Virus record (IMG/VR): IMGVR_UViG_3300038443_002312
Span: 1-64,000 of that record
Reading direction: 5' to 3' (one strand)
Source: a virus
Length of the DNA stretch: 64,000 bases
Shown here one piece after another: positions 4,232 through 52,520 of this stretch. A program made the position numbers and the translations under genes. The notes under the pieces were generated by a model. That model was not told the origin of the DNA and did not search any database. It saw only the letters and a list, made by a program, of their open reading frames with translations. Each line of letters opens with the position of its first letter. Position 1 is the first letter of the stretch.

Positions 4232-4690
4232 CTACTCCTCGCAGGTCGCGGCGAACATGAGCGTCGGGGTGCCCGGGCTGGTGCACTCCAGTTGGGCCGA
4301 CTGGGCCCCGGGGATCTTGATCTCCTGCCCCGGGTAGAGCATGTCGAGGATCGCCTGCTGGGGCTGCAACTCCCACCACAGCCCGCCGTCGGACGGGCTG
4401 GTCGGCTCGACCGACGCGTTCGCCCCGCAGGTAGTCTGGATCGTCTCCGAGTCCGTCGGGTCGTTCTTCCCCGGGGTGGCCCCGGTGAAGGTGCCGAAGT
4501 TCGCCGTCGACCGCGTCAGCCGGATCTTGACCGGGGTGTCCGTCCCGCCGGCCGGCTGCTTGCCGAACAGGCGGAGGCCCTTGATCAGGACCCGCTGGTT
4601 GGCCGCGGCCTTGATCTGGAGCAAGGACTTCGCGGTGCTCGCGACCAGCGCGGCTTCCCCGCTGTTGACGTGCCAGAGAACGCCGGCCAT
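4232..4690 (-). CDS. Hypothetical structural protein
   Basis: MAGVLWHVNSG..., balanced composition, lies in the morphogenesis module. Confidence 0.6.
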   Translation of the reverse strand: MAGVLWHVNSGEAALVASTAKSLLQIKAAANQRVLIKGLRLFGKQPAGGTDTPVKIRLTRSTANFGTFTGATPGKNDPTDSETIQTTCGANASVEPTSPSDGGLWWELQPQQAILDMLYPGQEIKIPGAQSAQLECTSPGTPTLMFAATCEE

Positions 4691-4764
4691 TGTCAGGTAC
4701 CTCGGTAAACGGGTGGTCGGGTCAGGGGGCGGGCCCGCCAGCGTGTTGGCAGGGCCCGGGCGGG

Positions 4765-5163
4765 TCAGCCGGTGATCGACACGGCCAGGGGCGGGACCAG
4801 GGCCAGGAGTTCGTCCCGGATGGTGTGGAACACGTCGTTCCAGTCCCGGGAGTCGATCGCGAACGTCCCGTCGGCGGCCGGCCTCTTGGCCGCGTACTCC
4901 TCCGCCAGCGCGGCCCGGCGGCGGTCGGTCGCGGTCGACCCGTCGTGCAGGGCGGCGGCCAGCCGGTCGGCCCCGCTGGCCAGGGCGGCCTGGACGCGGG
5001 CGACGTCGTCCCCGTGGAAGACGTGGTCCCGGGCGGTGTGCACGCACACCAGGTCGTGCTTGATGACCGGCTCGCCCTTCTTCCGGGGGGACTCGCCCTC
5101 CTCGTGCAGTTTGAGGTGGGCGGCCTTGGCGGCGGCGACTCGCTCGGCGGCGGACGGGGGCAT
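4765..5163 (-). CDS. Hypothetical protein
   Basis: ORF with GGAG RBS, protein-like composition. Confidence 0.6.
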   Translation of the reverse strand: MPPSAAERVAAAKAAHLKLHEEGESPRKKGEPVIKHDLVCVHTARDHVFHGDDVARVQAALASGADRLAAALHDGSTATDRRRAALAEEYAAKRPAADGTFAIDSRDWNDVFHTIRDELLALVPPLAVSITG

Positions 5164-5397: not shown

Positions 5398-5900
5398 CCG
5401 ACTCTCCCGGCCGCGGCCGCCCCGACCCGGGCCATGGCCACGAGCGGGGCGGCGTACCGCGGGTCCTTCAGGTGGTGGCACCGCAGGTGCATGAACTCGG
5501 TCGCGTACCCCTGGGTCGGGCCGACCGTGTTGATCTCCTTGACGACCAGGACCAGGTTCAGGGCCTCCGGGGCCCGGGGGACGACGACCTTGCCGGTGAA
5601 CCCGGTGACGACGATGAAGTCGTCCTGGAGGACGTCCCGCCAGTCGCAGTACACCGCGTACCCCAGGACCTCCGCCACCCCGCCGGCCGCCGTCACCTCG
5701 GTCCACCGCGTCCGGTTCGCCCGGCCGAGGAACCCGAGGAGGGGGTCGACCCCTTCCACCCGCATCTGGTCCGCGTCGTTCGGCCCGACGACCGGGACCG
5801 GCCCGGCCGCGACCGTCCCGCCCTTCTTGTCCCGCTCCGGGGTCGGGCGGAACTGCTTGAGCGTATGAATATAGGTGTAGACGCGGGGGTTCTGTTCCAC
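5394..5900 (-). CDS. Hypothetical protein, possible head-closure protein
   Basis: Position after the connector-like gene; beta-rich sequence. Confidence 0.45.
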   Translation of the reverse strand: MEQNPRVYTYIHTLKQFRPTPERDKKGGTVAAGPVPVVGPNDADQMRVEGVDPLLGFLGRANRTRWTEVTAAGGVAEVLGYAVYCDWRDVLQDDFIVVTGFTGKVVVPRAPEALNLVLVVKEINTVGPTQGYATEFMHLRCHHLKDPRYAAPLVAMARVGAAAAGRVG

Positions 5901-5901
5901 G

Positions 5902-6627
5902 TCAGCCCCCGAACGGCATCCCCGGGCAGTTCGGCGGGGCGCTGGTGACCCGCCGGGTGGTCGCCGGCCCGGTCCCGCCGGCCGCCCCCGGGGCGAGCGG
6001 GCCCTGGGTGAAGGACGCGACGTCGGGCGGGCGGGCCGACTGCGGGGCGGCCGGCTCGGAGGACACCGGGACCGTGAGGGCCGGGGCCTCGTGCGACACG
6101 CCGACCGTCGAGGTCGACATGGGCGGCGGGTCCATCGCCTTGGCCCCGGCCCGCATCTCGCCCGCCCCGGCCAGGGCCTTCTCGGCCGCGGCCGGGCTGG
6201 ACCGGCCGAAGACGGTCGCGCCCGGGACGACGACGGCCCCGGCCCCGCCCGCCTCCTCCATCCCGCACCCCTTCAGGCTCATCCCGACGCACTTCCCGTC
6301 GGGCATGGCGTGGTGCTCGAACTTGACCGGGCTGACGCCCTTGACGGCCATCTGCTCGCCGTGCCCGTCGGCCGGGCGGCCGGCCCCGTGCGGCTCCAGC
6401 CCGGCCTCGGGCGTCCCGCCGGTCGCGTGGGCGTCGGGCCCGGCGGTCACCCCGCCCTCCCCGTGGTGGCTCCCGGTCGCGTGGCTGGCGTACGGCTCGG
6501 TCATGGCCTTCTCCCCGGCTTCCCGGTACGCCGCCGCGGCGGCCTGGTCGGCCGGATGGCCCGCCCGGACCATCTCGGCGATGTTGTGCGAAATCACCGC
6601 CCGGCTGCTCCCGCGTTCGAGCGGCAT
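5902..6627 (-). CDS. Hypothetical phage protein
   Basis: N-terminus MPLERGSSRAVISHNIAEMVRAGHPADQAAAAAY is a motif common in phage head-module proteins. Confidence 0.55.
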   Translation of the reverse strand: MPLERGSSRAVISHNIAEMVRAGHPADQAAAAAYREAGEKAMTEPYASHATGSHHGEGGVTAGPDAHATGGTPEAGLEPHGAGRPADGHGEQMAVKGVSPVKFEHHAMPDGKCVGMSLKGCGMEEAGGAGAVVVPGATVFGRSSPAAAEKALAGAGEMRAGAKAMDPPPMSTSTVGVSHEAPALTVPVSSEPAAPQSARPPDVASFTQGPLAPGAAGGTGPATTRRVTSAPPNCPGMPFGG

Positions 6628-9489: not shown

Positions 9490-10842
9490 TTACTGGAAGT
9501 CCCCGCCGGTCCCGCGGGTCTGGAGGGTGACCGCCCACGACTGGGTCGGGCCGCCGGAGTGCGGGGTCAGGGCCTTGGTCCACCACGGCTTCCCGTCCAT
9601 GCGGATGATGAACCGGAACGCGTACTCGTTCGTGTCGAAGTACAGGTGCATCGACACCGCGGTCGCGATCCCGCCGCGGGTGGCGCACAGGTACTGGGAC
9701 AGGTCGGCGCAGATCAGGTCCCCCTCGGTCCCGAGCGGCTGGCCGAACTCCATCGGGATCATCGGCTTGCCGAACAGGGTCGCGTACTGGGCCCCCGACA
9801 CCCCGCCCGCGGGCAGGAAGGCCGGCCAGAACGACGACCCGCCGACCGTCATGTTGTACAGGGCGGGCTCGATCGACTGGTCGTACAGCCAGACGGCGTT
9901 CGGCCGGCACGACAGGTGGACCCGGGACCACATGTTCATCACGTCGGTCGACGAGATCGTGGCCGTGGTCTCGGCCGCGACCTTCGGGCACGCGATCTTC
10001 GAGGCCGCGTTCATGATCCCGAGCGGGGTCCCGTTCCCCTTCCCGTTGATGATCGCGTTCCCGAGCTGGAACTGGATTTCGGAGGCCGCGATGGTCGTCA
10101 GGAAGACCTCCAGGGCCCCGCCCGAGTCGGCCAGGAGTTCGTCCGTGACCCGCATGAACACCATCAGGCTGTTCAGGGTCAGGTCGACGGTCATCAGCCC
10201 GGGCTTCGTCGACTGGACGCTCTGGGCCTCGCTCCGCCAGTACGAGTTCACCCCGCCGTACCGGGACCCGTCGGCCCGGCTCGTCTCGTTGATCGCCGGG
10301 ATCTTGATCATGTTCCCGCCGAGCGGGAAGATCGTGGTCCGGCTCATGATGTCGTTGTTGTACATGCGCATCAGGATCTGCGCGACGAACTCGGGCGGGA
10401 TCAGGACGCCGCCGTCCGCGGCCGAGAACGACTCGCTCATCCCGAGCGGGGCGTTCGCCTTGACCCGCTGGTCGACCTCCTTGTTCCAGCGGTGCAGGCA
10501 CGTCTTGTAGTGCTCGGTCTCGTCCGGCCCGTACCCCTGGTTCGGCTGGGACGAGAACCGGACGGCCTTCAGGAACTCGCCGAACCCGCGGCGGAACGGC
10601 CCGCGGTCGCCCGCGTGCATCTTCTTGAGCTCGGCCATCGGGGCGCCGAACACGCTCCCGGGCAGGCCGGACGACCCCCACGTCCAGCCGTTCGCGTCCG
10701 GCTGGCCGATCACGGTCCCGGGCAGGTCCTTGACCCGGGCCGCCTCGGCCAGGGCGGTGTCCATCGCGTGGGACTCGCGGGCCGCGCCGGCCAGGGCCCC
10801 GCTCATCTGCGCGATCCGGTTCAGGGTGTTCAGGCTCGACAT
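9490..10842 (-). CDS. Major capsid protein, HK97 family
   Basis: ADGGVLIPPEF..I, VTDELLADS, IINGKGNGTPLGI, TLFGKPM, GDLICADLSQY, AFRFIIRMDG. Confidence 0.92.
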   Translation of the reverse strand: MSSLNTLNRIAQMSGALAGAARESHAMDTALAEAARVKDLPGTVIGQPDANGWTWGSSGLPGSVFGAPMAELKKMHAGDRGPFRRGFGEFLKAVRFSSQPNQGYGPDETEHYKTCLHRWNKEVDQRVKANAPLGMSESFSAADGGVLIPPEFVAQILMRMYNNDIMSRTTIFPLGGNMIKIPAINETSRADGSRYGGVNSYWRSEAQSVQSTKPGLMTVDLTLNSLMVFMRVTDELLADSGGALEVFLTTIAASEIQFQLGNAIINGKGNGTPLGIMNAASKIACPKVAAETTATISSTDVMNMWSRVHLSCRPNAVWLYDQSIEPALYNMTVGGSSFWPAFLPAGGVSGAQYATLFGKPMIPMEFGQPLGTEGDLICADLSQYLCATRGGIATAVSMHLYFDTNEYAFRFIIRMDGKPWWTKALTPHSGGPTQSWAVTLQTRGTGGDFQ

Positions 10843-10905: not shown

Positions 10906-12480
10906 TCAGCGGAGCGGGAACCCCTGGGTGAGCTTGGAGATCTTCTTCCGCAGGGCGACATTGTCCGCGGTGATCTTCTCGATCGCGGCGGCCTGGTCCT
11001 TCAGGGCCTTCTCGACGTCGTCGTCCTCGACCGGGTGCAGGGAGATCCCGCCGTCCCCGATCATCTCGTTGAGCCGCTTGACCTGTTCCAGGGCGCTCGC
11101 CCGCAGCCCGTCCGGGATCGGGGCCGCGGCCGGGAGCTCGGCCAGGGTCTTGAGGACGGCCGACGCCCCGTGCACCCGCTTGTGGTGGGCCCGGGTCCAG
11201 CCGGTCGTCTTGACCGCCCACATGAGCGCCTTCCCGAGCAGGGTCTTGTACTGCTGTTCTTCCGTGAACCGGCTCTCGTACACGTCGGCCGGGGTGACCG
11301 CGGCCCACGGGGCCGGCTCCCCGTACAGCCGCTGGTACTCGTCGGCCGCCTTGACGCACATCTCGCACTGGGCCTTGACGTACTGGCTGGCGAACTGCTC
11401 GGCCCCGCCCTCGACCGAGGTCATCGACTCGGTGACGGACAGGACGTTGAACAGGGCGACGTCGTGGATCGCCTCCAGCATCTTCTGGCTGGGCTTGCCC
11501 TCGTAGTCGCCCAGCCGCAGCCCGAGCCCCTTGCCGACCGCCTCGTTCCACCACTTCCCGTCCTCGGCCAGGGCCAGGACGTCGGCCGGGATGGCCGCCG
11601 GGGTCGGGGTCGGGGTCGCCGCCGGGGTCGGGGTCGGGGCCGGCGGGGTGGTGTTGGGGGTGGTCACGCCTTTGTCCTGTTCGGTGGTGGCGGCGGGGGT
11701 CGGGGTCGGGTCCGGCGCGGCCGGCAGGGTCGCCCCGGGGGCCCAGGCGGCGCCCGGGTCGGCGTACGGGGCGAGCAGGCTCTTGAGCACCGGCAGGAGC
11801 GGGACCGGGGCCGTCCCGCCGCCGCCCGAGAGCCCCTTGCGGACGACCTCGGTGATCAGGCTGCGGTCGTTCTCCGGGATGAAGACCAGGCTGGCCTCGA
11901 ACGCCTTCGACTTGCGGATGAACGTGGTCGCCGGCCCGTACGGCTCGGCCGGGTCGTCCGGCCGCCGGTCGTAGTCCTTCCAGGCGGCGACGAACCCGAT
12001 CGAGATCCCGTTCAGGACCTTGGACTCGCACAACTGGAACGCCTGGACGGCGAACGGGGCCATCGGCCCGGTCTGGACGAAGTAGCCCGTCCCGAGCAGG
12101 GTCTTGCCGGCCCGGCGGACGGTGAAGGACTTGGTGTTCGGGTCCTGCCACAATCCGAGGGGGACGTCCCGGTGGTGCTGGAAGCACATCATCGGGTTGC
12201 GGCCCCAGCCCGAAGTATCGAGCCCGTCGAGGACGAGGACTTCCTTGGCCCGGTCGGGCTCGCGCTCGTCCGAGATGACCCCGGTCACGCTCATGGTCTT
12301 GCCGTCGACCGTGAACGCGTTCTCGCCCTCCCGGGCCGCCTTCGTGGCGATGGCCAGGGCGACCTCGTCGGCCGCCCGCCCGGCCCCGGGCAGGGGGCGG
12401 AACACCTCGAACGCCGGGTCGGCCAGCGCCCGGGCGGCGACGTCCTGGTACTTGATGATTTCGAGTGCGGCGAGATCCAT
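10906..12480 (-). CDS. HK97-type prohead protease with long C-terminal extension (possible scaffold)
   Basis: DRAKEV..G, NPMMCFQH..PLG (His), LNGISIGF (Ser), FEASLVFIPEN; Pro/Thr linker then a helical/coiled-coil tail. Confidence 0.8.
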   Translation of the reverse strand: MDLAALEIIKYQDVAARALADPAFEVFRPLPGAGRAADEVALAIATKAAREGENAFTVDGKTMSVTGVISDEREPDRAKEVLVLDGLDTSGWGRNPMMCFQHHRDVPLGLWQDPNTKSFTVRRAGKTLLGTGYFVQTGPMAPFAVQAFQLCESKVLNGISIGFVAAWKDYDRRPDDPAEPYGPATTFIRKSKAFEASLVFIPENDRSLITEVVRKGLSGGGGTAPVPLLPVLKSLLAPYADPGAAWAPGATLPAAPDPTPTPAATTEQDKGVTTPNTTPPAPTPTPAATPTPTPAAIPADVLALAEDGKWWNEAVGKGLGLRLGDYEGKPSQKMLEAIHDVALFNVLSVTESMTSVEGGAEQFASQYVKAQCEMCVKAADEYQRLYGEPAPWAAVTPADVYESRFTEEQQYKTLLGKALMWAVKTTGWTRAHHKRVHGASAVLKTLAELPAAAPIPDGLRASALEQVKRLNEMIGDGGISLHPVEDDDVEKALKDQAAAIEKITADNVALRKKISKLTQGFPLR

Positions 12481-12524: not shown

Positions 12525-14336
12525 TCAGTGAGCGCCGTTGGCACCGGCCCCGAGTCGCCCGATCCCGCGGTACAGGTCGCGGACGAGGGTCAGATTGGGG
12601 ACGGCGTCCCCGGGGAGGAGTAGGTCGGTCGGGCGGACCGACGGCGGGCCGGCGAGTTGCTTCCGCGGGGCCCGGGACGTGGTCCGGGACCCGGCGGGCC
12701 CGACCCGGCCGGCGGGGCCGGTCCGCGAGGCGGGGCCGGTCCGCTGGGGCTGGTCGGGGCCGGGCGTACCGCCCGGCTGGCGACTGCCGGCCGGGCTCGA
12801 CCCCGGCGGCGGCTTCCCTCCCGGCCCGGAACTGCCAGAGGTGGAAGAAGGATTCGCAGTAGTATCGGGGACCCCCTCGCCGAGGTCAATACCAAGTTTC
12901 TTGGCGAGCACCCCGGCGACGTCGGTCCCGATCAGGAGGTCGCCGATGTCGGCCGGGAGCGGCGGGAGTTTCCGCCGCTTGCGGGCCTCGTTGAACGTCA
13001 CGTACCCGTACCGGCAGTCGAGGTCGTGCTCCCGCTCGGCCTGCTCCTTGTCGTGGATCGGCGGGGTCGGGACGTGGACCTCGATGTCCCCGCCGAACGC
13101 CGGGGCCAGGTCGTGTTCGAGGGCGTCGGCCAGGAGTTGCAGGATCGGGGCGACGGCCTGGTCCATGAAGCTGATCATGGCCGCGTAGTACGCGGCGTAC
13201 GCCCCGGGCTCCTGGAACCCGCACGCGATCGGGGTGACCCCGAAGAGGCCGAGGATGTTGTGCCCGATCGCCGTCCGCCCGTTGGCGTAGTCGAGTTCGC
13301 GGACCGACCGGTCGGCGTCCGCGATCTCGACCCCCTTCGGCAGGCGCATGTGCCGGCCGACGTTGTCCGGGCCGCCGAGCCGGCTGCGGATGATCGCGTC
13401 GAACCGGTCGGACTCCTCCCGGGTGGGCTCCTCGGCCGCGTTCTGCATCTGGAAGATGTACCCCGGGCGGAGGGTGTTCTTGAACCCGGCCCAGGTCGCC
13501 CGGTCCAGCTGGTTGCCGACGTCGATCCACAACTGGCCGGCGTCCATCGGGGAGAGGGCGTCGGTCAGGAAGCACACGTGCGGCCACCGGATCGGCATGA
13601 CCTCCCGGCCGTCCACGACCCCGCCACTGATCATCAGGTTCATCCACGACACGTCGCCGAACGGGTCGGCGTCCGGCCGCATCCCGCCGAACGTCCCGAC
13701 CGGCATGACCCGGTACGCCCCGTTCGGGTACTCGCGGGCGTCCGGCGGGACCGGGAAGGTGATCCCGGTCGGGATGATGTACAACTGCCGCGGCGTCCCC
13801 CGCCGGTCGAACCGGCGGACCCCGTCCCGCCGGACCCACATGAGCGTGGTCCCGGTCGCGCACGACTGCTGCGCGTGCTGGAACAAGAACTGCCCGCGGG
13901 TCATCCACGGGTTCGGCCGGCGGAGCAGGCGGTTGAGGGGGAAGTCCGGCGGGAGCGGGACCGAGTCCCCGCCGTCGTGGTTGGACGCCTGGACCGTCGC
14001 CTTGAAGTGGTCGTAGACCTCGGTCGGGACGAGCCCCTTCCGGTGCGCCTTGTGGGCCCGGTGCAGGATGTCGGCGGCCCGGGCCCCGGTCGCGAAACAG
14101 ATCGGCTGGGCCTTCGCGCACACCCGGGCCACCGCCCGGACGGCCGCGAACGTCCACCCGGTCACCAGGCGGGATTCTACGAAGTGGTTGGACGCCCAGC
14201 CGCCCGGCCCGCCGCCCGCCACGTACAGCGGGAACTGGCTCGGGACGGCCGTGTTGAAGCCCTTTTCGGCGGCCGAAACGGGGGCGGACGGCCCCTCGGG
14301 GCCGTCCCGCGATTGCAACCAGCCTGCGACGTTCAT
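12525..14336 (-). CDS. Phage portal protein
   Basis: LNRLLRRPNPWMT..F, ALSPM, ILGLFGVTP, VTFNEARKRRKLPPLP; sits upstream of protease and capsid. Confidence 0.85.
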   Translation of the reverse strand: MNVAGWLQSRDGPEGPSAPVSAAEKGFNTAVPSQFPLYVAGGGPGGWASNHFVESRLVTGWTFAAVRAVARVCAKAQPICFATGARAADILHRAHKAHRKGLVPTEVYDHFKATVQASNHDGGDSVPLPPDFPLNRLLRRPNPWMTRGQFLFQHAQQSCATGTTLMWVRRDGVRRFDRRGTPRQLYIIPTGITFPVPPDAREYPNGAYRVMPVGTFGGMRPDADPFGDVSWMNLMISGGVVDGREVMPIRWPHVCFLTDALSPMDAGQLWIDVGNQLDRATWAGFKNTLRPGYIFQMQNAAEEPTREESDRFDAIIRSRLGGPDNVGRHMRLPKGVEIADADRSVRELDYANGRTAIGHNILGLFGVTPIACGFQEPGAYAAYYAAMISFMDQAVAPILQLLADALEHDLAPAFGGDIEVHVPTPPIHDKEQAEREHDLDCRYGYVTFNEARKRRKLPPLPADIGDLLIGTDVAGVLAKKLGIDLGEGVPDTTANPSSTSGSSGPGGKPPPGSSPAGSRQPGGTPGPDQPQRTGPASRTGPAGRVGPAGSRTTSRAPRKQLAGPPSVRPTDLLLPGDAVPNLTLVRDLYRGIGRLGAGANGAH

Positions 14337-14417: not shown

Positions 14418-14443
14418 AAAAAACCGGGGCCGGGCCCCGGTTT
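14418..14443 (-). terminator. Rho-independent terminator ending the guide-array transcript
   Basis: Minus strand AAACCGGGGC-CCG-GCCCCGG-TTTTTT. Confidence 0.8.
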
Positions 14444-14457
14444 CTGCTGCATACCCC

Positions 14458-14621
14458 CTCGCCCTCACCCGCACCTCATCCCGTCACCCGCGTACCCTCA
14501 CCCCATACCCCTCACCCGCGAACCGCTGAACCAGTCCCACCTCACCCGCGAACCCGGACGCAGTTCCCCTCACCCGATCGGTGCGCCACCCTCGCCCGCG
14601 TGGCGGTGGACCCCTCACCCG
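14458..14621 (-). CRISPR. Mini-repeat array C (~8 units, repeat ~(CG)CGGGTGAGGG)
   Basis: Plus-strand CCCTCACCCG(CG) variants separated by unique spacers, degenerating toward the terminator; non-canonical CRISPR-like. Confidence 0.6.
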
Positions 14622-14729
14622 GTCGCGAGACGTCGTCGAAAAATCGCGGGCCGGCCTACCCGGGTCGCCCCGGATAATCAGCCGGTTACGGGGCCGACTG
14701 GGACCCCGTGCTGGCCTGAGAGTGGGCCA
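14612..14729 (-). ncRNA. Structured guide-RNA scaffold (tracr/omega-like), copy 1
   Basis: Homologous to 16734-16847 with compensatory base changes in two helices and a GNRA loop; ends in the first repeat of array C. Confidence 0.75.
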
Positions 14730-14761
14730 TTGTGTCTCGCGGAACACCCGTCATCGTCAAC

Positions 14762-15066
14762 GCCTCACCCGCGGGATCATGAGCCCTCGCCCGGCTTCCA
14801 CCCGTCTCACCCGACCGACTTTGCGCCTCTCGCCCGCGGGTCCGGTTATGATCCCCTCGCCCGACCGAACCTCTCACCCCTCACCCGCGGGTCTGAGCCT
14901 GTGACCCCTCGCCCGCGACAGTTCCCGGTTCTTCTGCCCCTCACCCGTCGAACCTCGCCCTCACCCGCGGCCCTTCGCGAACTCCTTCCCCTCGCCCGGA
15001 TGTCCTGGGTCTGGTTCTCCCTCATCCGCGACCCCACCCGCCAGCCCATCCCCGCTCTCACCCGCG
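14762..15066 (-). CRISPR. Mini-repeat array B (~12 units, repeat ~(CG)CGGGYGAGGG)
   Basis: Repeat starts near 14762, 14784, 14804, 14827, 14854, 14878, 14906, 14938, 14958, 14989, 15019, 15055; unique spacers of about 10-24 nt. Confidence 0.65.
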
Positions 15067-15068
15067 AC

Positions 15069-16367
15069 TCACTCCTCCTCGTCGGCGAAGACGACCACAC
15101 ACCCCATCTCCTCCAGCTTGTACCGGAGGCTCTGCCGGAACTGGGTCCAATTCCACGGGTGCCCGGCCAGGCACCCGACCGGCGGCCCGCCGTTGAAACT
15201 GCGGGTCGGCAGGGCGGCCACGCGGACGATCCCGCACCGCCACTGCCGCGCCCGGTCGGCGATCCGCCGGGTCCAGGCGTGGTTCCGGGCCTTCTGCCCC
15301 TCCTCGCGCTGGGCCGTGGCCCGGGCCAGGGTGGCCTGGTTGACCGCCCACCCCTTGCCGAACCCCCACGGCCGCCGCGGGCTCCCGCAGTCGCCGCGCC
15401 GCCGCTCCAGGGCCGCCCGGCGGTTGGCCGCGTAGGCCAGGAAGGCCCGGACGTCGGCCGCCCCGAGCGTGTCGGCCGTCTCCGCCCCGTCCGGCCCGGC
15501 CAGCCCGAAGAGGGGCAGGTCGGCCGACGGGTCGCGCCGGCCCTCCGGGACCAGGTCGGTCGCCCCGTCCCGCGGGGTGACCACGAGGGTCCGGGCCGGG
15601 TCCAGGTCCGCGGCCGACCGCGGTCGCTCGTGCGACACGGTGGCGAACAGCTTGCCGTCGACCTCGGACAGGAAGACCGTGCCGAGCTTCCACCCGTCGG
15701 CCCCGTCCCGCAGGGCCTGCCACACCCGCCACCGCCCGCCGTCGAGGTTCTGGGTCAGTTGGAAGGCGACCTCGCCGATGTCCCGGTCCCAGCGCAGGAC
15801 CAGGGCCCGCTTGTCGAGCCGGGGCTTGGCCGTGGCGACCGGGAGGCCGATCCCGCGGCGGTTGAACTGGGCCAGCCCGCGGGCCCCCTGGAGGACCAGC
15901 CAGCCGCGGGTCGCCTGCGGGAACTCCGGGTCCCGGGCCTGCCACGCGGTCTGGAGGTCCCGGCGGGCGCTGTCGTTGACGAACGCGAGCATGGTCGGCA
16001 ACTGGCGGGCGACCTCGGCCCGCAGTTCGTACACCGGGCCCCGCGGGATCTTGACCTGGTAGACCTCGCCGTCGCCGCGCTTGCGCTCCTCGGGGACCAC
16101 GACCTCCGCCGTCGCCTGCCCGTGGGCCAGGGCGGCCAAGACTTTGGCGTTGTTGTTGCTCGGGGTCACCCGGCACTCGTCCCCGGTCCAGGTGATCTCG
16201 GCCCCGGCCGCCCGGGACTCGGCCATCAGCCCGTAGCAGTGCCGCAGGCACGCCCGGTAGGCCCGGACCGACGCCACCACCCGCTTGCGGTCCTCGGCCC
16301 GGTCGGCCGGCATCGCCAGATCGACCCGGAGCGACCGCTGGACGCCTTTCGCCTCTGCTGCCGCCAT
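15069..16367 (-). CDS. Nuclease-dead, C-terminally truncated TnpB/Cas12f-like RNA-guided DNA-binding protein (432 aa)
   Basis: DGKLFATVSHERP..DLDPARTLVVT (RuvC-I position, no Asp); RNHAWTRRIADRARQWRCGIVRVAALP (RuvC-II, Glu replaced by Ala); WNWTQFRQSLRYKLEEMGCVVVFAD; no Zn finger or RuvC-III. GGAG RBS before ATG 16367. Confidence 0.7.
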   Translation of the reverse strand: MAAAEAKGVQRSLRVDLAMPADRAEDRKRVVASVRAYRACLRHCYGLMAESRAAGAEITWTGDECRVTPSNNNAKVLAALAHGQATAEVVVPEERKRGDGEVYQVKIPRGPVYELRAEVARQLPTMLAFVNDSARRDLQTAWQARDPEFPQATRGWLVLQGARGLAQFNRRGIGLPVATAKPRLDKRALVLRWDRDIGEVAFQLTQNLDGGRWRVWQALRDGADGWKLGTVFLSEVDGKLFATVSHERPRSAADLDPARTLVVTPRDGATDLVPEGRRDPSADLPLFGLAGPDGAETADTLGAADVRAFLAYAANRRAALERRRGDCGSPRRPWGFGKGWAVNQATLARATAQREEGQKARNHAWTRRIADRARQWRCGIVRVAALPTRSFNGGPPVGCLAGHPWNWTQFRQSLRYKLEEMGCVVVFADEEE

Positions 16368-16395
16368 GCCGGAACTCCGTGTGCCCCATGACAAG

Positions 16396-16743
16396 CCGTC
16401 ACCCGCGACCGGTTGCCACCCGCATCCCCTCACCCCGCATCCGCCGCCGGAATAGCCCTTCACCCGCGACCTGCCACAGGTCGGTTCCCGTCACCCGCGG
16501 CATCTCCCGCCGATGTTCCCGTCACCCGCAGTTCAGATTGAGCCATCACCCGCTGGCCCGACTGTTCGTCCCCCGATGCTCACCCGTCACCCGCTGGCGA
16601 CCGCTGGGCACACCCCGTCACCCACTGTTCCGAACCTTGCCGTCACCCGCGGCCGGCCATTCCGGGTTACCATCACCCGAGACACCCGAGAGCCAACCGT
16701 CACCCGCGGGCCGGGCACGCCACCCGGATGGGACCCTCGCCCG
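16396..16743 (-). CRISPR. Mini-repeat array A (~12 units, repeat ~(C)GCGGGTGACGG)
   Basis: Repeat starts near 16396, 16427, 16457, 16488, 16519, 16543, 16584, 16615, 16640, 16670, 16697, 16734; period mostly 24-31 nt; unique spacers. Confidence 0.7.
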
Positions 16744-16847
16744 GTCGCGGTGTCAAAGAAAAGTCGCGGGCCGACCTGCCGGGTTGCCCCGGTAATCAGT
16801 CGGTTAGCCGGCCGACTCGGGCCGGCTGTTGGCCTGAAGGTGGGCCA
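16734..16847 (-). ncRNA. Structured guide-RNA scaffold (tracr/omega-like), copy 2
   Basis: Hairpins GGCC-CACCTTCA-GGCC, AGCCGGCC/GGCCGGCT, CCGAC..CCGGG-GCAA-CCCGG..GTCGG, then anti-repeat CCCGCG; begins at the predicted TSS. Confidence 0.75.
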
Positions 16848-16854
16848 CGAACTA

Positions 16855-16883
16855 AATCTATACACACCGACAGGAGTGGTCAA
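16855..16883 (-). promoter_or_regulatory. Sigma70-like promoter driving scaffold/array/dTnpB unit
   Basis: TTGACC-N17-TAGATT about 7 nt upstream of scaffold copy 2. Confidence 0.7.
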
Positions 16884-17343: not shown

Positions 17344-17649
17344 CACGGCGGTCAGTTCCCCGCCCCGGTCCTCCTCGCGGAACTCCTCCACGGGCAGGCC
17401 GGCGGCGGTCAGGCGGGCCCGGGCGGCGGCCAGGGCGGCCTCGTCGGGGACGGCGAGCAGGACGAGATGGGGGTGGGGGAGGAAGGCGAGGGGCCGGGAA
17501 CGAACCGCCTCGATGGCGGCGTGGCACGCCTGAACGGCAGGCTGGGCCCCGGGCAGATCGGCGCGGACGAGGACGTACAGGTAGGACGGCCGGCGGGGCT
17601 CAGACGGGCCGGCGCATTCACGTAAACCCGGACATGGGAACCTCCTCAG

Positions 17650-17722
17650 ACCACCCGGTCGGGATCGAACCGACGTGTCACCGATTTGAAGTTCGGTTGC
17701 CGTTCCACTTGGCTACGGGTGG
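17650..17722 (-). tRNA. tRNA-like gene with 8-nt anticodon loop ACUUCAAA (contains UCA)
   Basis: Acceptor CCACCCG/CGGGTGG, D-arm GCC-AAGTGGAAC-GGC, anticodon stem ACCGA/TCGGT, T-arm GTCGG-TTCGATC-CCGAC. Confidence 0.75.
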
Positions 17723-17733
17723 AAGATTAAGGT

Positions 17734-17910
17734 AACCGGGGGCAGGGGTCGAACCTGCGACCACGGCTTACAAGGCCGCCGCTCTTGCCGGTCGGGCGGG
17801 CGGTTTACACGGGGCCGCGCTAGCTCGGCCGTCCCCCGCCTGCCCCGTCGGCCCCGGGACCGTCCGCTTGTACCTGCGGCGCAGTTACCGGCCTTCTGAG
17901 CTACCCCGGC
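17734..17910 (-). tRNA. tRNA-Thr(UGU) with ~100-nt insertion in the D-loop
   Basis: GCCGGGG-TA-GCTC-[113-nt D-loop]-GAGC-G-GCGGC-CTTGTAA-GCCGT-GGTC-GCAGG-TTCGACC-CCTGC-CCCCGGT. Confidence 0.7.
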
Positions 17911-17913
17911 ACG

Positions 17914-17940
17914 AAAAAAGGGCGGCCCGAGCCCGCCCCG
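17914..17940 (-). terminator. Terminator-like hairpin plus U-tract directly 5' of the interrupted tRNA-Thr
   Basis: GGGCGG-GCTCGGG-CCGCCC-TTTTTT on the minus strand. Confidence 0.6.
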
Positions 17941-18097
17941 CACACTCTGTCACCGAACCGCACATGGAGGGAGTCGTTCGGATGGAGGAAGTCACTTGCG
18001 ATCCGGGGTGTCCGCCGACGGTTCCCGGCTTGGTCTGCCGGTCGCCTGAAGCGGACGTCACGCCACCTTGGGTTGTACGGTTGCCAGTGAGATCGAA

Positions 18098-18264
18098 TAC
18101 CCGGCGGGGGAGTCGAACCGCCCATCTCCGGCTTAGCCGCCGGTGTCCTCCCAGGGATTGACGGGTGCAGGCGGTACTCGGTCGGGCGTCGTTGGGTGAC
18201 CTGCCACTTACCGACACCGACCGCACCTGCCGTCTCGCCCCTGCCTCCGCTGAACGAGCCGGGC
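18098..18264 (-). tRNA. tRNA-like gene with large D-loop insertion and aberrant 6-nt anticodon loop (GGCUAA)
   Basis: Acceptor GCCCGGC/GCCGGGT, D-stem GTTC/GGAC enclosing ~100 nt, CCGGC/GCCGG stem, GGTTCGACT T-loop. Confidence 0.55.
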
Positions 18265-18330
18265 TTGTTTAGGTCCGGGGCGACGAAAGAGGTGTCGCCC
18301 ATTCACCCGGAGATCCCCGCCCCGGACCAG

Positions 18331-18400
18331 ACGCCCCACCGGGACTCGAACCCGGACCTGCCCCTTTGATAGGGCCGTGCTGCCATCGCACCCTGGGACG
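18331..18400 (-). tRNA. tRNA-like gene with non-canonical anticodon arm
   Basis: Acceptor CGTCCCA/TGGGGCG, D-arm GTGC/GCAC, T-arm CCGGG-TTCGAGT-CCCGG; anticodon arm GCCCT-ATCAAA-GGGGC is 1 nt short. Confidence 0.6.
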
Positions 18401-22013: not shown

Positions 22014-23381
22014 CTACAGGGTGTTGACCACGTTGATGACCAGGGCGGCCGCCCGGACGTCCTCCTTGTCCCGGGCCTTGCGGACCATCGCGGCCATCAC
22101 GTCGGCCACGTCGTCCGGGGTAACCTTGGCCAGGATGGCGGCCCTCAGGGCGGCGGCCCGGTCGGCGGCCTCGGCGGGGGCGGGGCAGGCCCCGCGGACG
22201 GCGGCGACGGACCGGCGGCCGGGGCCGTCGCCAGCCGGGACAAGAGCGCCACGGTCGGCAGGTAGTGGTCGGGGGCCCGGGCCCCCGACGGCTTGTTCCG
22301 CCTCAGCCGGGCGATCAGCCCCCGGGCCTCCAGTTCCGTCACGTAGTTCCGCCGCCCGCCGCCCGTCCGGGCCGCCCCGATCGAGGTCGACAGGCCGCAC
22401 GCCGAGAGCCACTCCGCCCGGGTCAGGGCCCGGCCGGCGGTCGCCAGGGCGACCGCCAGGTGGACCTCCTTCGGCCGCAGGTCCGCCGGCAGGTTGTACG
22501 CCCGGGCCAGGGCCTCCGCCCGGGCCCGCTCGGCCAGCAGTTTCCCCCAGCTCCCCCGGCTCGCCAGGGCCGCCATCTTCGCCACCGCCGCCGAGCGGGC
22601 CGGAGGGCCCGGGTCGTTCGAATCCGTCACGGGCAAATCCCTCCCTGACCGCCGTGGCCACCGCTTCGAGGGCGGCCGCCTTGTCCCGGTCGACCACCCG
22701 CCCGTCCGGGGCCAGGACGGCCCGCAGGTCGAACCGGGCCCGGGCCTCGCGCTGGGCGACCCGCTGGCGGCTCATGCCCAATTGCTCCCCGATCTGCCGC
22801 ATGGTCAGCCCGTCGAACGCCCGGAGCCGGAGGATTTGCAGGTCGAGCGGGCGGAGGACCCGGGCGGCCAGGTCCCACAGGTCGGTCACCTCGGCCCCGG
22901 GCTCGACCCCGCGGTCCGGGACCAGGTCCCGGCCGGCGATCTTGCCGTCGTCGCCGCCCGGCCCGCCGCCCATGTCGTCGAGGCTCGGCCCCCACCCCCA
23001 GTAGAACGCCGCCTTGGCCTCGCCGCAGTTGACGTGCACCCCGCGGTTACTCTCGGCCAGGACGTGCTTGCGGATGGCCGAGTGGATCGAGTGCCCGGCG
23101 GCCGTCTGGAAGCTGGCCCCGCGGGTCGGGTTGAACCGCCGGGCCCCGATCACCAGCCCGAATTCGGCCGCCCCGCAGATGTCGTCGAAGTCGAGGGCCG
23201 GGTGGTTCGCCGCCCACTGTTTGGCGTACCGCCGGGCCAGGGGCCGCCACTGGCGGATGTGGGCGTCCTGGCACGCGGCGCACAACCGGGGCGGGCCGGC
23301 CATCGGCAGCGGGCGGCGGGCGTACCGCCGCGGGGTGGCCGTCGGGTTGAGGCGTTTGGGCGGGGCGGTCGGCGCGGGCAA
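22014..23381 (-). CDS. Sigma-70 family RNA polymerase sigma factor (regions 2 and 4); C-terminal extension doubtful
   Basis: DFDDICGAAEFGLVIGARRFNPTRGASFQTAAGHSI (region 2); ILRLRAFDGLTMRQIGEQLGMSRQRVAQRE (region 4 HTH). Confidence 0.75.
   Translation of the reverse strand: MPAPTAPPKRLNPTATPRRYARRPLPMAGPPRLCAACQDAHIRQWRPLARRYAKQWAANHPALDFDDICGAAEFGLVIGARRFNPTRGASFQTAAGHSIHSAIRKHVLAESNRGVHVNCGEAKAAFYWGWGPSLDDMGGGPGGDDGKIAGRDLVPDRGVEPGAEVTDLWDLAARVLRPLDLQILRLRAFDGLTMRQIGEQLGMSRQRVAQREARARFDLRAVLAPDGRVVDRDKAAALEAVATAVREGFARDGFERPGPSGPLGGGGEDGGPGEPGELGETAGRAGPGGGPGPGVQPAGGPAAEGGPPGGRPGDRRPGPDPGGVALGVRPVDLDRGGPDGRRAAELRDGTGGPGADRPAEAEQAVGGPGPRPLPADRGALVPAGDGPGRRSVAAVRGACPAPAEAADRAAALRAAILAKVTPDDVADVMAAMVRKARDKEDVRAAALVINVVNTL
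22145..22630 (-). CDS. Putative winged-helix DNA-binding protein (overlaps the sigma ORF tail)
   Basis: LRPKEVHLAVALA..ALTRAEW..NYVTELEARGLIARL; GGAGG RBS. Confidence 0.45.
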   Translation of the reverse strand: MTDSNDPGPPARSAAVAKMAALASRGSWGKLLAERARAEALARAYNLPADLRPKEVHLAVALATAGRALTRAEWLSACGLSTSIGAARTGGGRRNYVTELEARGLIARLRRNKPSGARAPDHYLPTVALLSRLATAPAAGPSPPSAGPAPPPPRPPTGPPP

Positions 23382-51797: not shown

Positions 51798-52520
51798 TCA
51801 GGCCGCCCCCGTGTCCATGAACCCGGTGAAGTCCATCCGCCCGGCCAGCCGGGCGAGGATCTTGACCTCCAGCTGCCGGACCCGCTCGCGGGTGATCCCG
51901 AAGGTCGCCCCGACCGCGTCCAGGGTCAGCCCCTCGACGAACCGCAGGCGGACGACCTCGGCCTGCCGCGGGTCGAGCCAGCGGTTGACCTCCCGCCAGA
52001 ACGCCGCCCGGTCCAGGCTGGCGCCGCCCTCCTCGGTCGGGTCCCGCTCGGTGTCGTCCGCGAGCAGGGGCCCGCGCGGCGACCGGGTGAGGTCCCCCTT
52101 CGTCGCCCCGATCGGCTGGTCGAGCGAGACCGGGCGGTGGACGTAGCGCATCTCGGTCTCGTTCGGGACCCGGGCCCCGGCGTTCGACTCGCGGGCCCGG
52201 AACCGGCGGAGGCGCATCTCGACCCAGTAGGTGGCGTAGGTCAGGTACGACGTCCCGCGGGTCGGGTCGTACCGCCGGGCCGCGAGGACCAGGCCCACGA
52301 CCGCCTCCTGCCGCATGTCGTCGAGGGCCACCGCCGCCCGGTTCATCTGCCACCACCGGTACGCCAGCCCGAAGGCCAGCGGGCGGAACCGGACGACGAC
52401 CGCCTCGCGCTCCGGGGCGGTCAGGTAGGGCAGGTCGGCCGCGGGGCCGCCGTCGTCCGCGAGGCGGCCGAGGGCCGCCTCGTCCGCCCCGTCCCACTCG
52501 ACCGGGGTGGCCCGCCTCAG
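51798..52520 (-). CDS. Sigma-70 family RNA polymerase sigma factor (start uncertain)
   Basis: LDDMRQEAVVGLVLAARRYDPTRGTSYLTYATYWV; VSLDQPI; VVRLRFVEGLTLDAVGATFGITRERVRQLE. Confidence 0.85.
   Translation of the reverse strand: MRRATPVEWDGADEAALGRLADDGGPAADLPYLTAPEREAVVVRFRPLAFGLAYRWWQMNRAAVALDDMRQEAVVGLVLAARRYDPTRGTSYLTYATYWVEMRLRRFRARESNAGARVPNETEMRYVHRPVSLDQPIGATKGDLTRSPRGPLLADDTERDPTEEGGASLDRAAFWREVNRWLDPRQAEVVRLRFVEGLTLDAVGATFGITRERVRQLEVKILARLAGRMDFTGFMDTGAA

Follow-up and report, generated by a model that had tools for sequence, protein, structure and literature searches.

A phage-encoded nuclease-dead Cas12f homologue with separate scaffold RNAs, mini-repeat arrays and a predicted split guide

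How could a phage protein be supplied with RNA guides from repeats only 12 nucleotides (nt) long? The question is raised by a minus-strand locus of the virus record IMGVR_UViG_3300038443_002312 (positions 14418-16883), in which the gene for a 432-aa protein, P0001, lies among two copies of a structured RNA, referred to here as the scaffold, and three arrays (A, B and C) of ultra-short repeats. The window that we analysed is the first 64 kb of this 115.7-kb IMG/VR record, the completeness of which is estimated at 71%. We think it rather probable that the locus encodes a DNA-binding system that is RNA-guided, nuclease-dead and type V-F-like (Cas12f-derived), and the guide of which is split, i.e., scaffold and guides are separate RNAs. 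The initial annotation had announced a new RNA-guided system, which is too strong: the system is a variant of the published dead Cas12f/TldR-type systems. The argument builds on features observed in sequence, namely the homology of the protein, the loss of its active site, the fold of the scaffold, the covariation between scaffold and repeats, and the recurrence of mini-repeats in a distant phage.

The unit runs from a promoter through scaffold 2, array A, the P0001 gene, array B, scaffold 1 and array C to a terminator (Table 1). This is exactly the order that had been proposed from the sequence, with all elements on the minus strand and at the proposed positions or a few bases off.

As judged from its sequence and a structural model, P0001 is a nuclease-dead homologue of Cas12f. 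The AlphaFold model, built from a 23-sequence alignment (pLDDT 86), exhibits the Cas12f fold with its WED/REC/RuvC core: all top Foldseek matches were Cas12f, followed by TnpB, with some 20 Cas12f and TnpB chains at E-values from 4.6e-13 (8j12, probability 1.00) to 1e-7. The third match was a natural nuclease-dead Cas12f (dCas12f; 9n9c, E-value 3.3e-12), and the TnpB match was weaker than those of Cas12f (8h1j, 1.7e-7). Compared with proteins of the PDB, the profile of the family pointed in the same direction (OsCas12f, 9nzq, 1e-17; AsCas12f, 1.5e-12), and it matched the natural dCas12f at an E-value of 1.3e-5 in the C-terminal part only. Pfam contributed a sub-threshold match between the very C terminus and positions 1-25 of the 60-position profile of the Cas12f1-like TNB domain. 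The fold search, the profile and the active-site residues all agree with the dead TnpB/Cas12f-like protein of the initial annotation, Cas12f being the closest.

The RuvC-I aspartate is replaced by T264 and the RuvC-II glutamate by A384 in P0001, which ends 19 residues past the YK motif, where the zinc (Zn) finger and RuvC-III would start, and contains no CxxC pairs. Across the family, the RuvC-I aspartate is present in none of the 23 close and none of the 45 distant members, and the RuvC-II glutamate in 6 and 4 of them, respectively; none of the 68 sequences has the two CxxC motifs or the Zn-finger tail, and every one of them stops short of the Zn finger and RuvC-III. The uniform absence of the RuvC-I aspartate and of a CxxC-rich tail in both sets indicates an old, uniformly dead lineage rather than a broken gene. 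The family comprises 183 representatives at 50% clustering (E-value ≤ 1e-3) and has no name in any source consulted.

The duplicated scaffold was recovered as described, by a covariance model (R1) built from 11 scaffold copies. Copies 1 and 2 are 77% identical over 61 nt and 79% over 33 nt. RNAalifold folded the 11 sequences into three hairpins with compensatory changes in 13 of the 15 pairs, and R1 retrieved all its training copies along with one untrained copy. The common plan consists of hairpin 1, hairpin 2, AAU, hairpin 3, a C-rich tail and, in most loci, a U-run. No Rfam family matched anywhere in the locus. These comparisons of sequences support the scaffold as a real conserved structured RNA. 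An R1 scan of the 115.7-kb genome returned no scaffold beyond the two copies; a third one fitting array A, considered as a candidate, was likewise missing from that genome.

The arrays are made of units that share a 12-nt repeat, hereafter the tag. A fuzzy parse of this repeat counted 11 units in array A, 12 in B and 8 in C; the earlier estimates of about 12 and about 8 hold for B and C, and array A, also put at about 12, parses as 11. The spacers span 0-32 nt and are mostly 10-20 nt long. When units were aligned, conservation was confined to about 13 nt, (C)GC-GGG-YGA-SGG-(G), with flanks that vary freely. The exact motif GGGTGASGG occurs 19 times in the 64-kb window, compared with 6.8 expected, a count reached in none of 100 shuffles; 17 of the 19 lie in the roughly 1.15 kb that the arrays occupy, all on the minus strand. 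For a looser version of the motif, 32 of 130 genome-wide minus-strand matches are located in the 14-17 kb segment. On the minus strand of 14500-16650, the repeat is immediately preceded by GGTTCG in five units, and GAAC opens three guides, which may be the vestige of a longer repeat or a common target feature.

Relatives' loci were taken from IMG/VR, a GTDB metagenome-assembled genome (MAG) and metagenomes, and nine distinct loci were read. All nine have at least one scaffold match, upstream or downstream of the gene, with co-oriented arrays. Whether homologues carry both the scaffold and the mini-repeats had been proposed as a check; the scaffold is present in 9/9 loci and mini-repeats occur in one relative, L011, whereas seven loci have repeats of 28-29 nt and spacers of about 32 nt. 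The 29-nt repeats with 32-nt spacers and a hairpin before the handle are, we presume, type I-E-like in size and shape. The closest relative, L001, has a 28-nt repeat, and the window repeat coincides with its 3' end in 12 of 13 bases. The ultra-short repeats originally pointed out in the window, some 30 units of 12 nt and above chance, are therefore the scaffold-docking part of the relatives' longer repeats.

L011 belongs to a low-GC phage, its protein being 31% identical to P0001 (BLASTP), unlike the high-GC phage of the window. It contains 50 TAATGG units on the strand of the gene versus 2 on the other, with a median gap of 19 nt. On sequence grounds, this is the same mini-repeat design as in the window, which is therefore not a one-off. 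The units form two arrays about 750 bp apart (4310-5058, 30 units; 5813-6350, 20 units), in which several spacers recur with few changes, so that the array grew by internal duplication.

The link between tags and scaffolds was examined by one fixed rule applied to every locus, in which the last six bases of the hairpin-1 loop were compared with repeat positions -7 to -2. The ten cognate loop-tag pairs have 57 Watson-Crick and one G-U pair at 60 positions, whereas non-cognate pairs average 3.6 Watson-Crick pairs of six; the cognate total was reached in 0 of 200,000 permutations. The hexamers differ between loci (CCCUUG/CAAGGG, CCGCUG/CAGCGG, CCCGAA/UUCGGG, CCAUUA/UAAUGG in L011, and others), which makes this covariation and not shared composition. 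L005, with two scaffold and array cassettes upstream of its gene, repeats the pattern within one locus: its scaffold loops read CCCGCA and CCCGCG and its arrays UGCGGG and CGCGGG, differing at the matching base. These two cassettes also show that cassette duplication, as in the window, is not unusual, and the L013 group has up to four scaffold copies per phage. For L010, an eleventh case, the loop CCCACG was predicted from the repeat beforehand, and R1 then found a scaffold 2.4 kb upstream with precisely this loop, the tail of which is a perfect 11-nt complement of the repeat.

A second contact is suggested between the scaffold tail and the block that precedes the tag hexamer on its 5' side, with -11.7 kcal/mol in cognate pairs against -8.6 kcal/mol in non-cognate ones (p 5e-5 by permutation); it is the weaker evidence, because both sides are G/C-rich. 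In the window, the tag block CGCGGG is the complement of the CCCGCG tail, and the CUCUCA loop is the pairing partner of UGAGGG. The two blocks with which a repeat meets the scaffold are thus exactly what the window repeat retains; it is a 'half repeat' of which only the docking portion is left. In omegaRNA and in the single guide RNA (sgRNA) of Cas12f, the guide-adjacent segment is held by pairing with upstream parts of the scaffold; by analogy, it would be the tag that positions the guide within the effector.

The mechanism that we propose starts with one transcription unit, which would give rise to the 432-aa protein, two scaffolds of about 95 nt that resemble trans-activating CRISPR RNA (tracrRNA) with three hairpins, and the three arrays. 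Each unit would comprise the 12-nt tag (CGCGGG followed by UGAGGG or UGACGG, then usually G) and a guide of about 10-20 nt. The tag would dock on the scaffold in trans, with the 3' hexamer on the loop of hairpin 1 and the 5' hexamer on the CCCGCG tail before the U-run, and the docked pair would rebuild an omegaRNA- or sgRNA-like guide. The protein, devoid of the RuvC-I aspartate, Zn finger and RuvC-III, would then bind guide-matched DNA without cutting it, and the likely effect would be to block or steer the transcription of genes of the host or of rival elements during infection. Transcription, processing and loading of the units, as well as DNA binding, regulatory outcome and targets, are steps that we infer.

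How does such a system compare with those already described? Type V-F Cas12f provides the best structural and profile matches (AsCas12f, 8j12/7wju; OsCas12f, 9nzq; SpCas12f1, 9i8y), and shares with the window system the miniature size, a separate tracrRNA-like scaffold, a guide 3' of a repeat-derived handle and, in most relatives, arrays. Pairing of the tracrRNA with the repeat, as in type V-F, is predicted by the covariation of loop with tag and tail with tag. Unlike type V-F Cas12f, the window system has neither an intact RuvC D-E-D triad nor a Zn finger (TNB), RuvC-III or Cas1. Its repeats are 12 nt and its spacers about 10-20 nt long, whereas ordinary repeats have about 28-37 nt, and pairing would proceed via a hairpin loop and a short tail instead of a long repeat:anti-repeat duplex.

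Natural dCas12f proteins of Bacteroidota form sigmaE-linked systems and a distinct cluster near CRISPR arrays (Hoffmann, Wiegand et al., Nature 2026, PMC13472631; PDB 9n9c). The window system resembles them in its Cas12f origin, a C-terminal truncation into RuvC, short guides and a role in transcription that is presumed or shown. In contrast, they use fused single guides without tracrRNA, whereas scaffold, which ends in a U-run, and guides are separate in the window; they are chromosomal and the window system is phage-borne; their sigmaE-linked form has an operonic rpoE, the product of which contacts dCas12f by an extra C-terminal domain, whereas the window locus has no operonic rpoE or helix-turn-helix (HTH) gene; and the sequence link to them is weak, as the profile E-value given above indicates. 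TldR, a TnpB-like nuclease-dead repressor with guides of 9-16 nt, is in some cases phage-encoded and acts by RNA-guided repression (Wiegand et al. 2024; 10.1101/2023.11.30.569447). Dead RuvC and short guides are common to both; however, TldR has one omegaRNA-like guide fused to the scaffold at the 3' end of the gene and a link to fliC/oppF, unlike the window, with its roughly 30 units, trans scaffold, lack of fliC/oppF neighbours and a protein that scores as Cas12f and not as TnpB. The guide lengths fit these published dead effectors, since those of dCas12f have 14-16 nt and function above 10 nt (PMC13472631) and those of TldR have 9-16 nt.

The half-direct-repeat scenario for the evolution of sigma-TnpB assumes that Cas12f loses RuvC-III and that the array shrinks to a half repeat, the retained 3' end of which adjoins the tracrRNA (Altae-Tran et al., PNAS 2023, PMC10691335). 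There, the half repeat next becomes fused with the tracrRNA, and it is entire omegaRNAs that are then duplicated, whereas in the window the half repeat is separate and multiplied about 30-fold. Cas12m (type V-M), which binds and silences without cutting, resembles what is predicted for P0001, but is larger, uses no tracrRNA, has ordinary arrays and gave only weak Foldseek matches (E-value about 1e-4, template-modelling score about 0.2). Unlike the setting of TnpB in IS200/IS605 elements, which is marked by transposon ends, TnpA and a single omegaRNA, the neighbours of the window locus are phage head genes and tRNA-like genes. The literature that we searched contains no description of the family, of a trans scaffold with a hairpin loop for a 6-nt tag, or of arrays with 30-50 tags, although this does not prove their absence.

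The more specific proposal is that tags of 6-12 nt dock on a separate dead-Cas12f scaffold, that 30-50 guides thereby fit into about 1 kb with no need for repeats of CRISPR length, processing of the Cas6 type or Cas1-Cas2, that at least two phage lineages, very distant from each other, evolved or retained the arrangement, and that it represents a living intermediate between omegaRNA and tracrRNA:crRNA (CRISPR RNA). On this proposal the evidence is about evenly poised. Several observations weigh against a split guide. The hexamer registers were first read by eye before the one rule was fixed for all loci. Conservation of the tag's 5' block is partial, GGG alone being constant, and several spacers of array C (2-7 nt) are too short for guiding. 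The main tag of array A, UGACGG, has a central C.U mismatch to both scaffold loops, and its variants UGAAGG and UGAGGG alone fit scaffold 2, so that array A and scaffold 2 do not co-vary within the window. In the 115.7-kb record of the phage itself, the window guides gave no matches in excess of those of shuffled controls. There is also no known route by which hairpin-less short-repeat units would be cut, or new ones gained without Cas1.

Searches for targets of the relatives' guides gave a similar picture. Spacers of L005 had only chance-level matches in the MAG that carries the same gene, the L013 array found no match in 50,697 phage records, one L010 spacer matched only itself in IMG/VR, and comparison of a G005 array with its three sister records returned identical arrays and no protospacers. 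The L013-type genomes G003, G004 and G005 (L013-L015, L034), from different metagenomes, share 100% identical spacers in the one array sampled, which hints at guides that are fixed rather than fast-turning. The reported absence of adaptation and transposase genes stands for Cas1, with none in the window's phage record or in four related phage records; Cas2 and TnpA were not searched for separately.

Could the mini-arrays then be the remains of arrays with 28-nt repeats that have decayed or collapsed, with function left at most in the unit or units next to a scaffold and the others carried along as junk? The irregular units with spacers from nil to 32 nt, some of them nearly back to back, would fit this explanation, as would the degenerate tags (up to three mismatches), the mismatch of array A to both scaffolds and the lack of acquisition genes in the Cas1 search. 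However, decay would not retain precisely the docking hexamer, whereas the docking core is kept in about 30 units between freely varying flanks, and the 50-unit design recurs in L011, at about 31% protein identity and low GC, with a tag that exactly complements its own loop. We consider decay unlikely.

Somewhat less likely again is that the split-guide system binds DNA under RNA guidance but serves as a recruiter or activator, perhaps with a phage sigma factor, or in the control of replication or packaging. Published dCas12f recruits sigmaE via the gap that the loss of the Zn finger and RuvC-III has opened (PMC10691335, PMC13472631), and about 5 kb upstream of the locus the phage of the window encodes a 455-aa sigma-70-family protein that is extended at length at its C terminus. 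Nevertheless, this gene, the nearest sigma gene, is not adjacent to the locus, the relatives G003 and G004 (the latter 91% complete) have no match to sigma-70 region 4, and the effector is the sole protein common to the nine loci. A link of a sigma factor to the effector was rejected as inconsistent across the family. The sigma gene itself (22014-23381, minus strand) encodes regions 2 and 4 within the N-terminal 220 residues of its product, followed by about 235 further residues, and a second sigma gene is situated near 51846-51977.

The arrays might instead deliver RNA decoys (RNA anti-CRISPRs or crRNA-like RNAs), with many copies of the 3' handle of a repeat that soak up Cas proteins of the host or the partners of its crRNA, the dead Cas12f being secondary. 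The presumed type I-E-like shape of the relatives' repeats speaks for this. Phage repeat-like RNAs that subvert host Cas proteins are also published (10.1101/2024.10.29.618823). We regard it as improbable, because the tags co-vary with the phage's own scaffold and not with any host element, and the mini-repeats lack the hairpin bound by class 1 processing enzymes, the L011 tag being just UAAUGG. Finally, that the repeats act as DNA or structure (protein-binding iterons, G-quadruplex) or encode a repetitive peptide, unrelated to guide RNA, can be dismissed as very improbable: the G-rich motif GGG-N3-GGG and the mechanically called open reading frames that overlap the arrays would suit it, but unit spacing is not in multiples of three, as a coding repeat would require, the L011 tag has no G-tracts, on which grounds we rejected a coding repeat or G-quadruplex, and strand bias, co-orientation with gene and scaffold, and loop complementarity point to RNA.

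Table 1. Features of the dCas12f locus and of the adjoining head module (coordinates refer to the window)
Feature	Coordinates	Strand	Remarks
Promoter, sigma-70-like (TTGACC-N17-TAGATT)	16855-16883	-	Consensus scan, 9/12 matches; consensus match only
Scaffold RNA copy 2	16756-16849	-	Three hairpins, CCCGCG tail, U-run; covariance model R1 59.8 bits, E-value 9e-17
Array A	16396-16745	-	Mostly CGCGGGTGACGG; 11 units (16708-16396), spacers 11-29 nt; in 5' leader of the gene
Array A, first tag unit	~16745-16734	-	Directly after scaffold 2, ahead of the 11 units
Gene for Cas12f-like protein P0001 (432 aa)	15069-16367	-	GGAG 8 nt before ATG
Array B	14762-15066	-	12 units of CGCGGGTGAGGG or CGCGGGCGAGGG; begins 3 nt past the stop codon
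Scaffold RNA copy 1	14636-14732	-	R1 55 bits, E-value 3e-15; paralogue of copy 2
Array C	14462-14623	-	8 units; a 12-nt linker separates the first from scaffold 1; last three nearly back to back
Intrinsic terminator	14418-14443	-	AACCGGGGC-CCG-GCCCCGGTT + T6; 9-bp GC stem, 3-nt loop; direct sequence reading
Second promoter-like site	14373-14345		Heads portal operon
Portal gene	12525-14336		Head module
Protease/scaffold-like gene	10906-12480		Head module
Major capsid gene	9490-10842		Head module

The locus is placed between a tRNA-like cluster and the phage head module, the genes of which adjoin it and agree with the phage context recognised at the outset. The consensus scan of the region found two promoter sites against 0.1 expected; the terminator is visible in the sequence, yet absent from the listing of the scan. 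The tRNA-like cluster (17649-18400), just upstream, contains two tRNA-like genes by ARAGORN (17649-17722 and 18330-18400) of undetermined identity and with odd anticodon loops, and Rfam gave one good and one sub-threshold tRNA match. tRNA genes also adjoin the dCas12f cassettes of L004 and L013.

A few further observations concern the relatives. In L013 (920-1045; also in L014 and L015), the second scaffold runs into UAAGGG, about 20 nt and a terminator-like hairpin, and in sequence looks like a natural fused single guide beside ordinary arrays. Pieces of the 3' end of the effector gene and of an upstream gene are repeated within or after the array of L010 (4500-4560 and 4700-4790), a 54.6-kb record that has terminal repeats; either the repeats have recombined or the assembly is at fault. 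The copy assigned to a Bacteriovoracaceae MAG (L005, 5811-7000, and L002) has the effector followed by a 200-aa open reading frame and a GSGKSS P-loop protein, a setting that may be a defence island rather than a phage.

If the units of the window are real guides, they would constitute the most compact natural multiplex guide array known to us, at about 29 nt per guide. The minimal rule for loading a guide on a Cas12f-type scaffold would then be the pairing of a hexamer with a hairpin loop, a rule that could be copied for multiplex CRISPR interference with miniature effectors. Such a system would raise the questions of how its guides are excised and how it gains new ones with no Cas1-Cas2, and which genes phages silence with about 30 guides is a question that can be tested. 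The locus would also give the nuclease-dead Cas12f/TnpB regulators a branch that is phage-borne and CRISPR-linked, and would show the proposed 'half-repeat' stage of their evolution as a working array.

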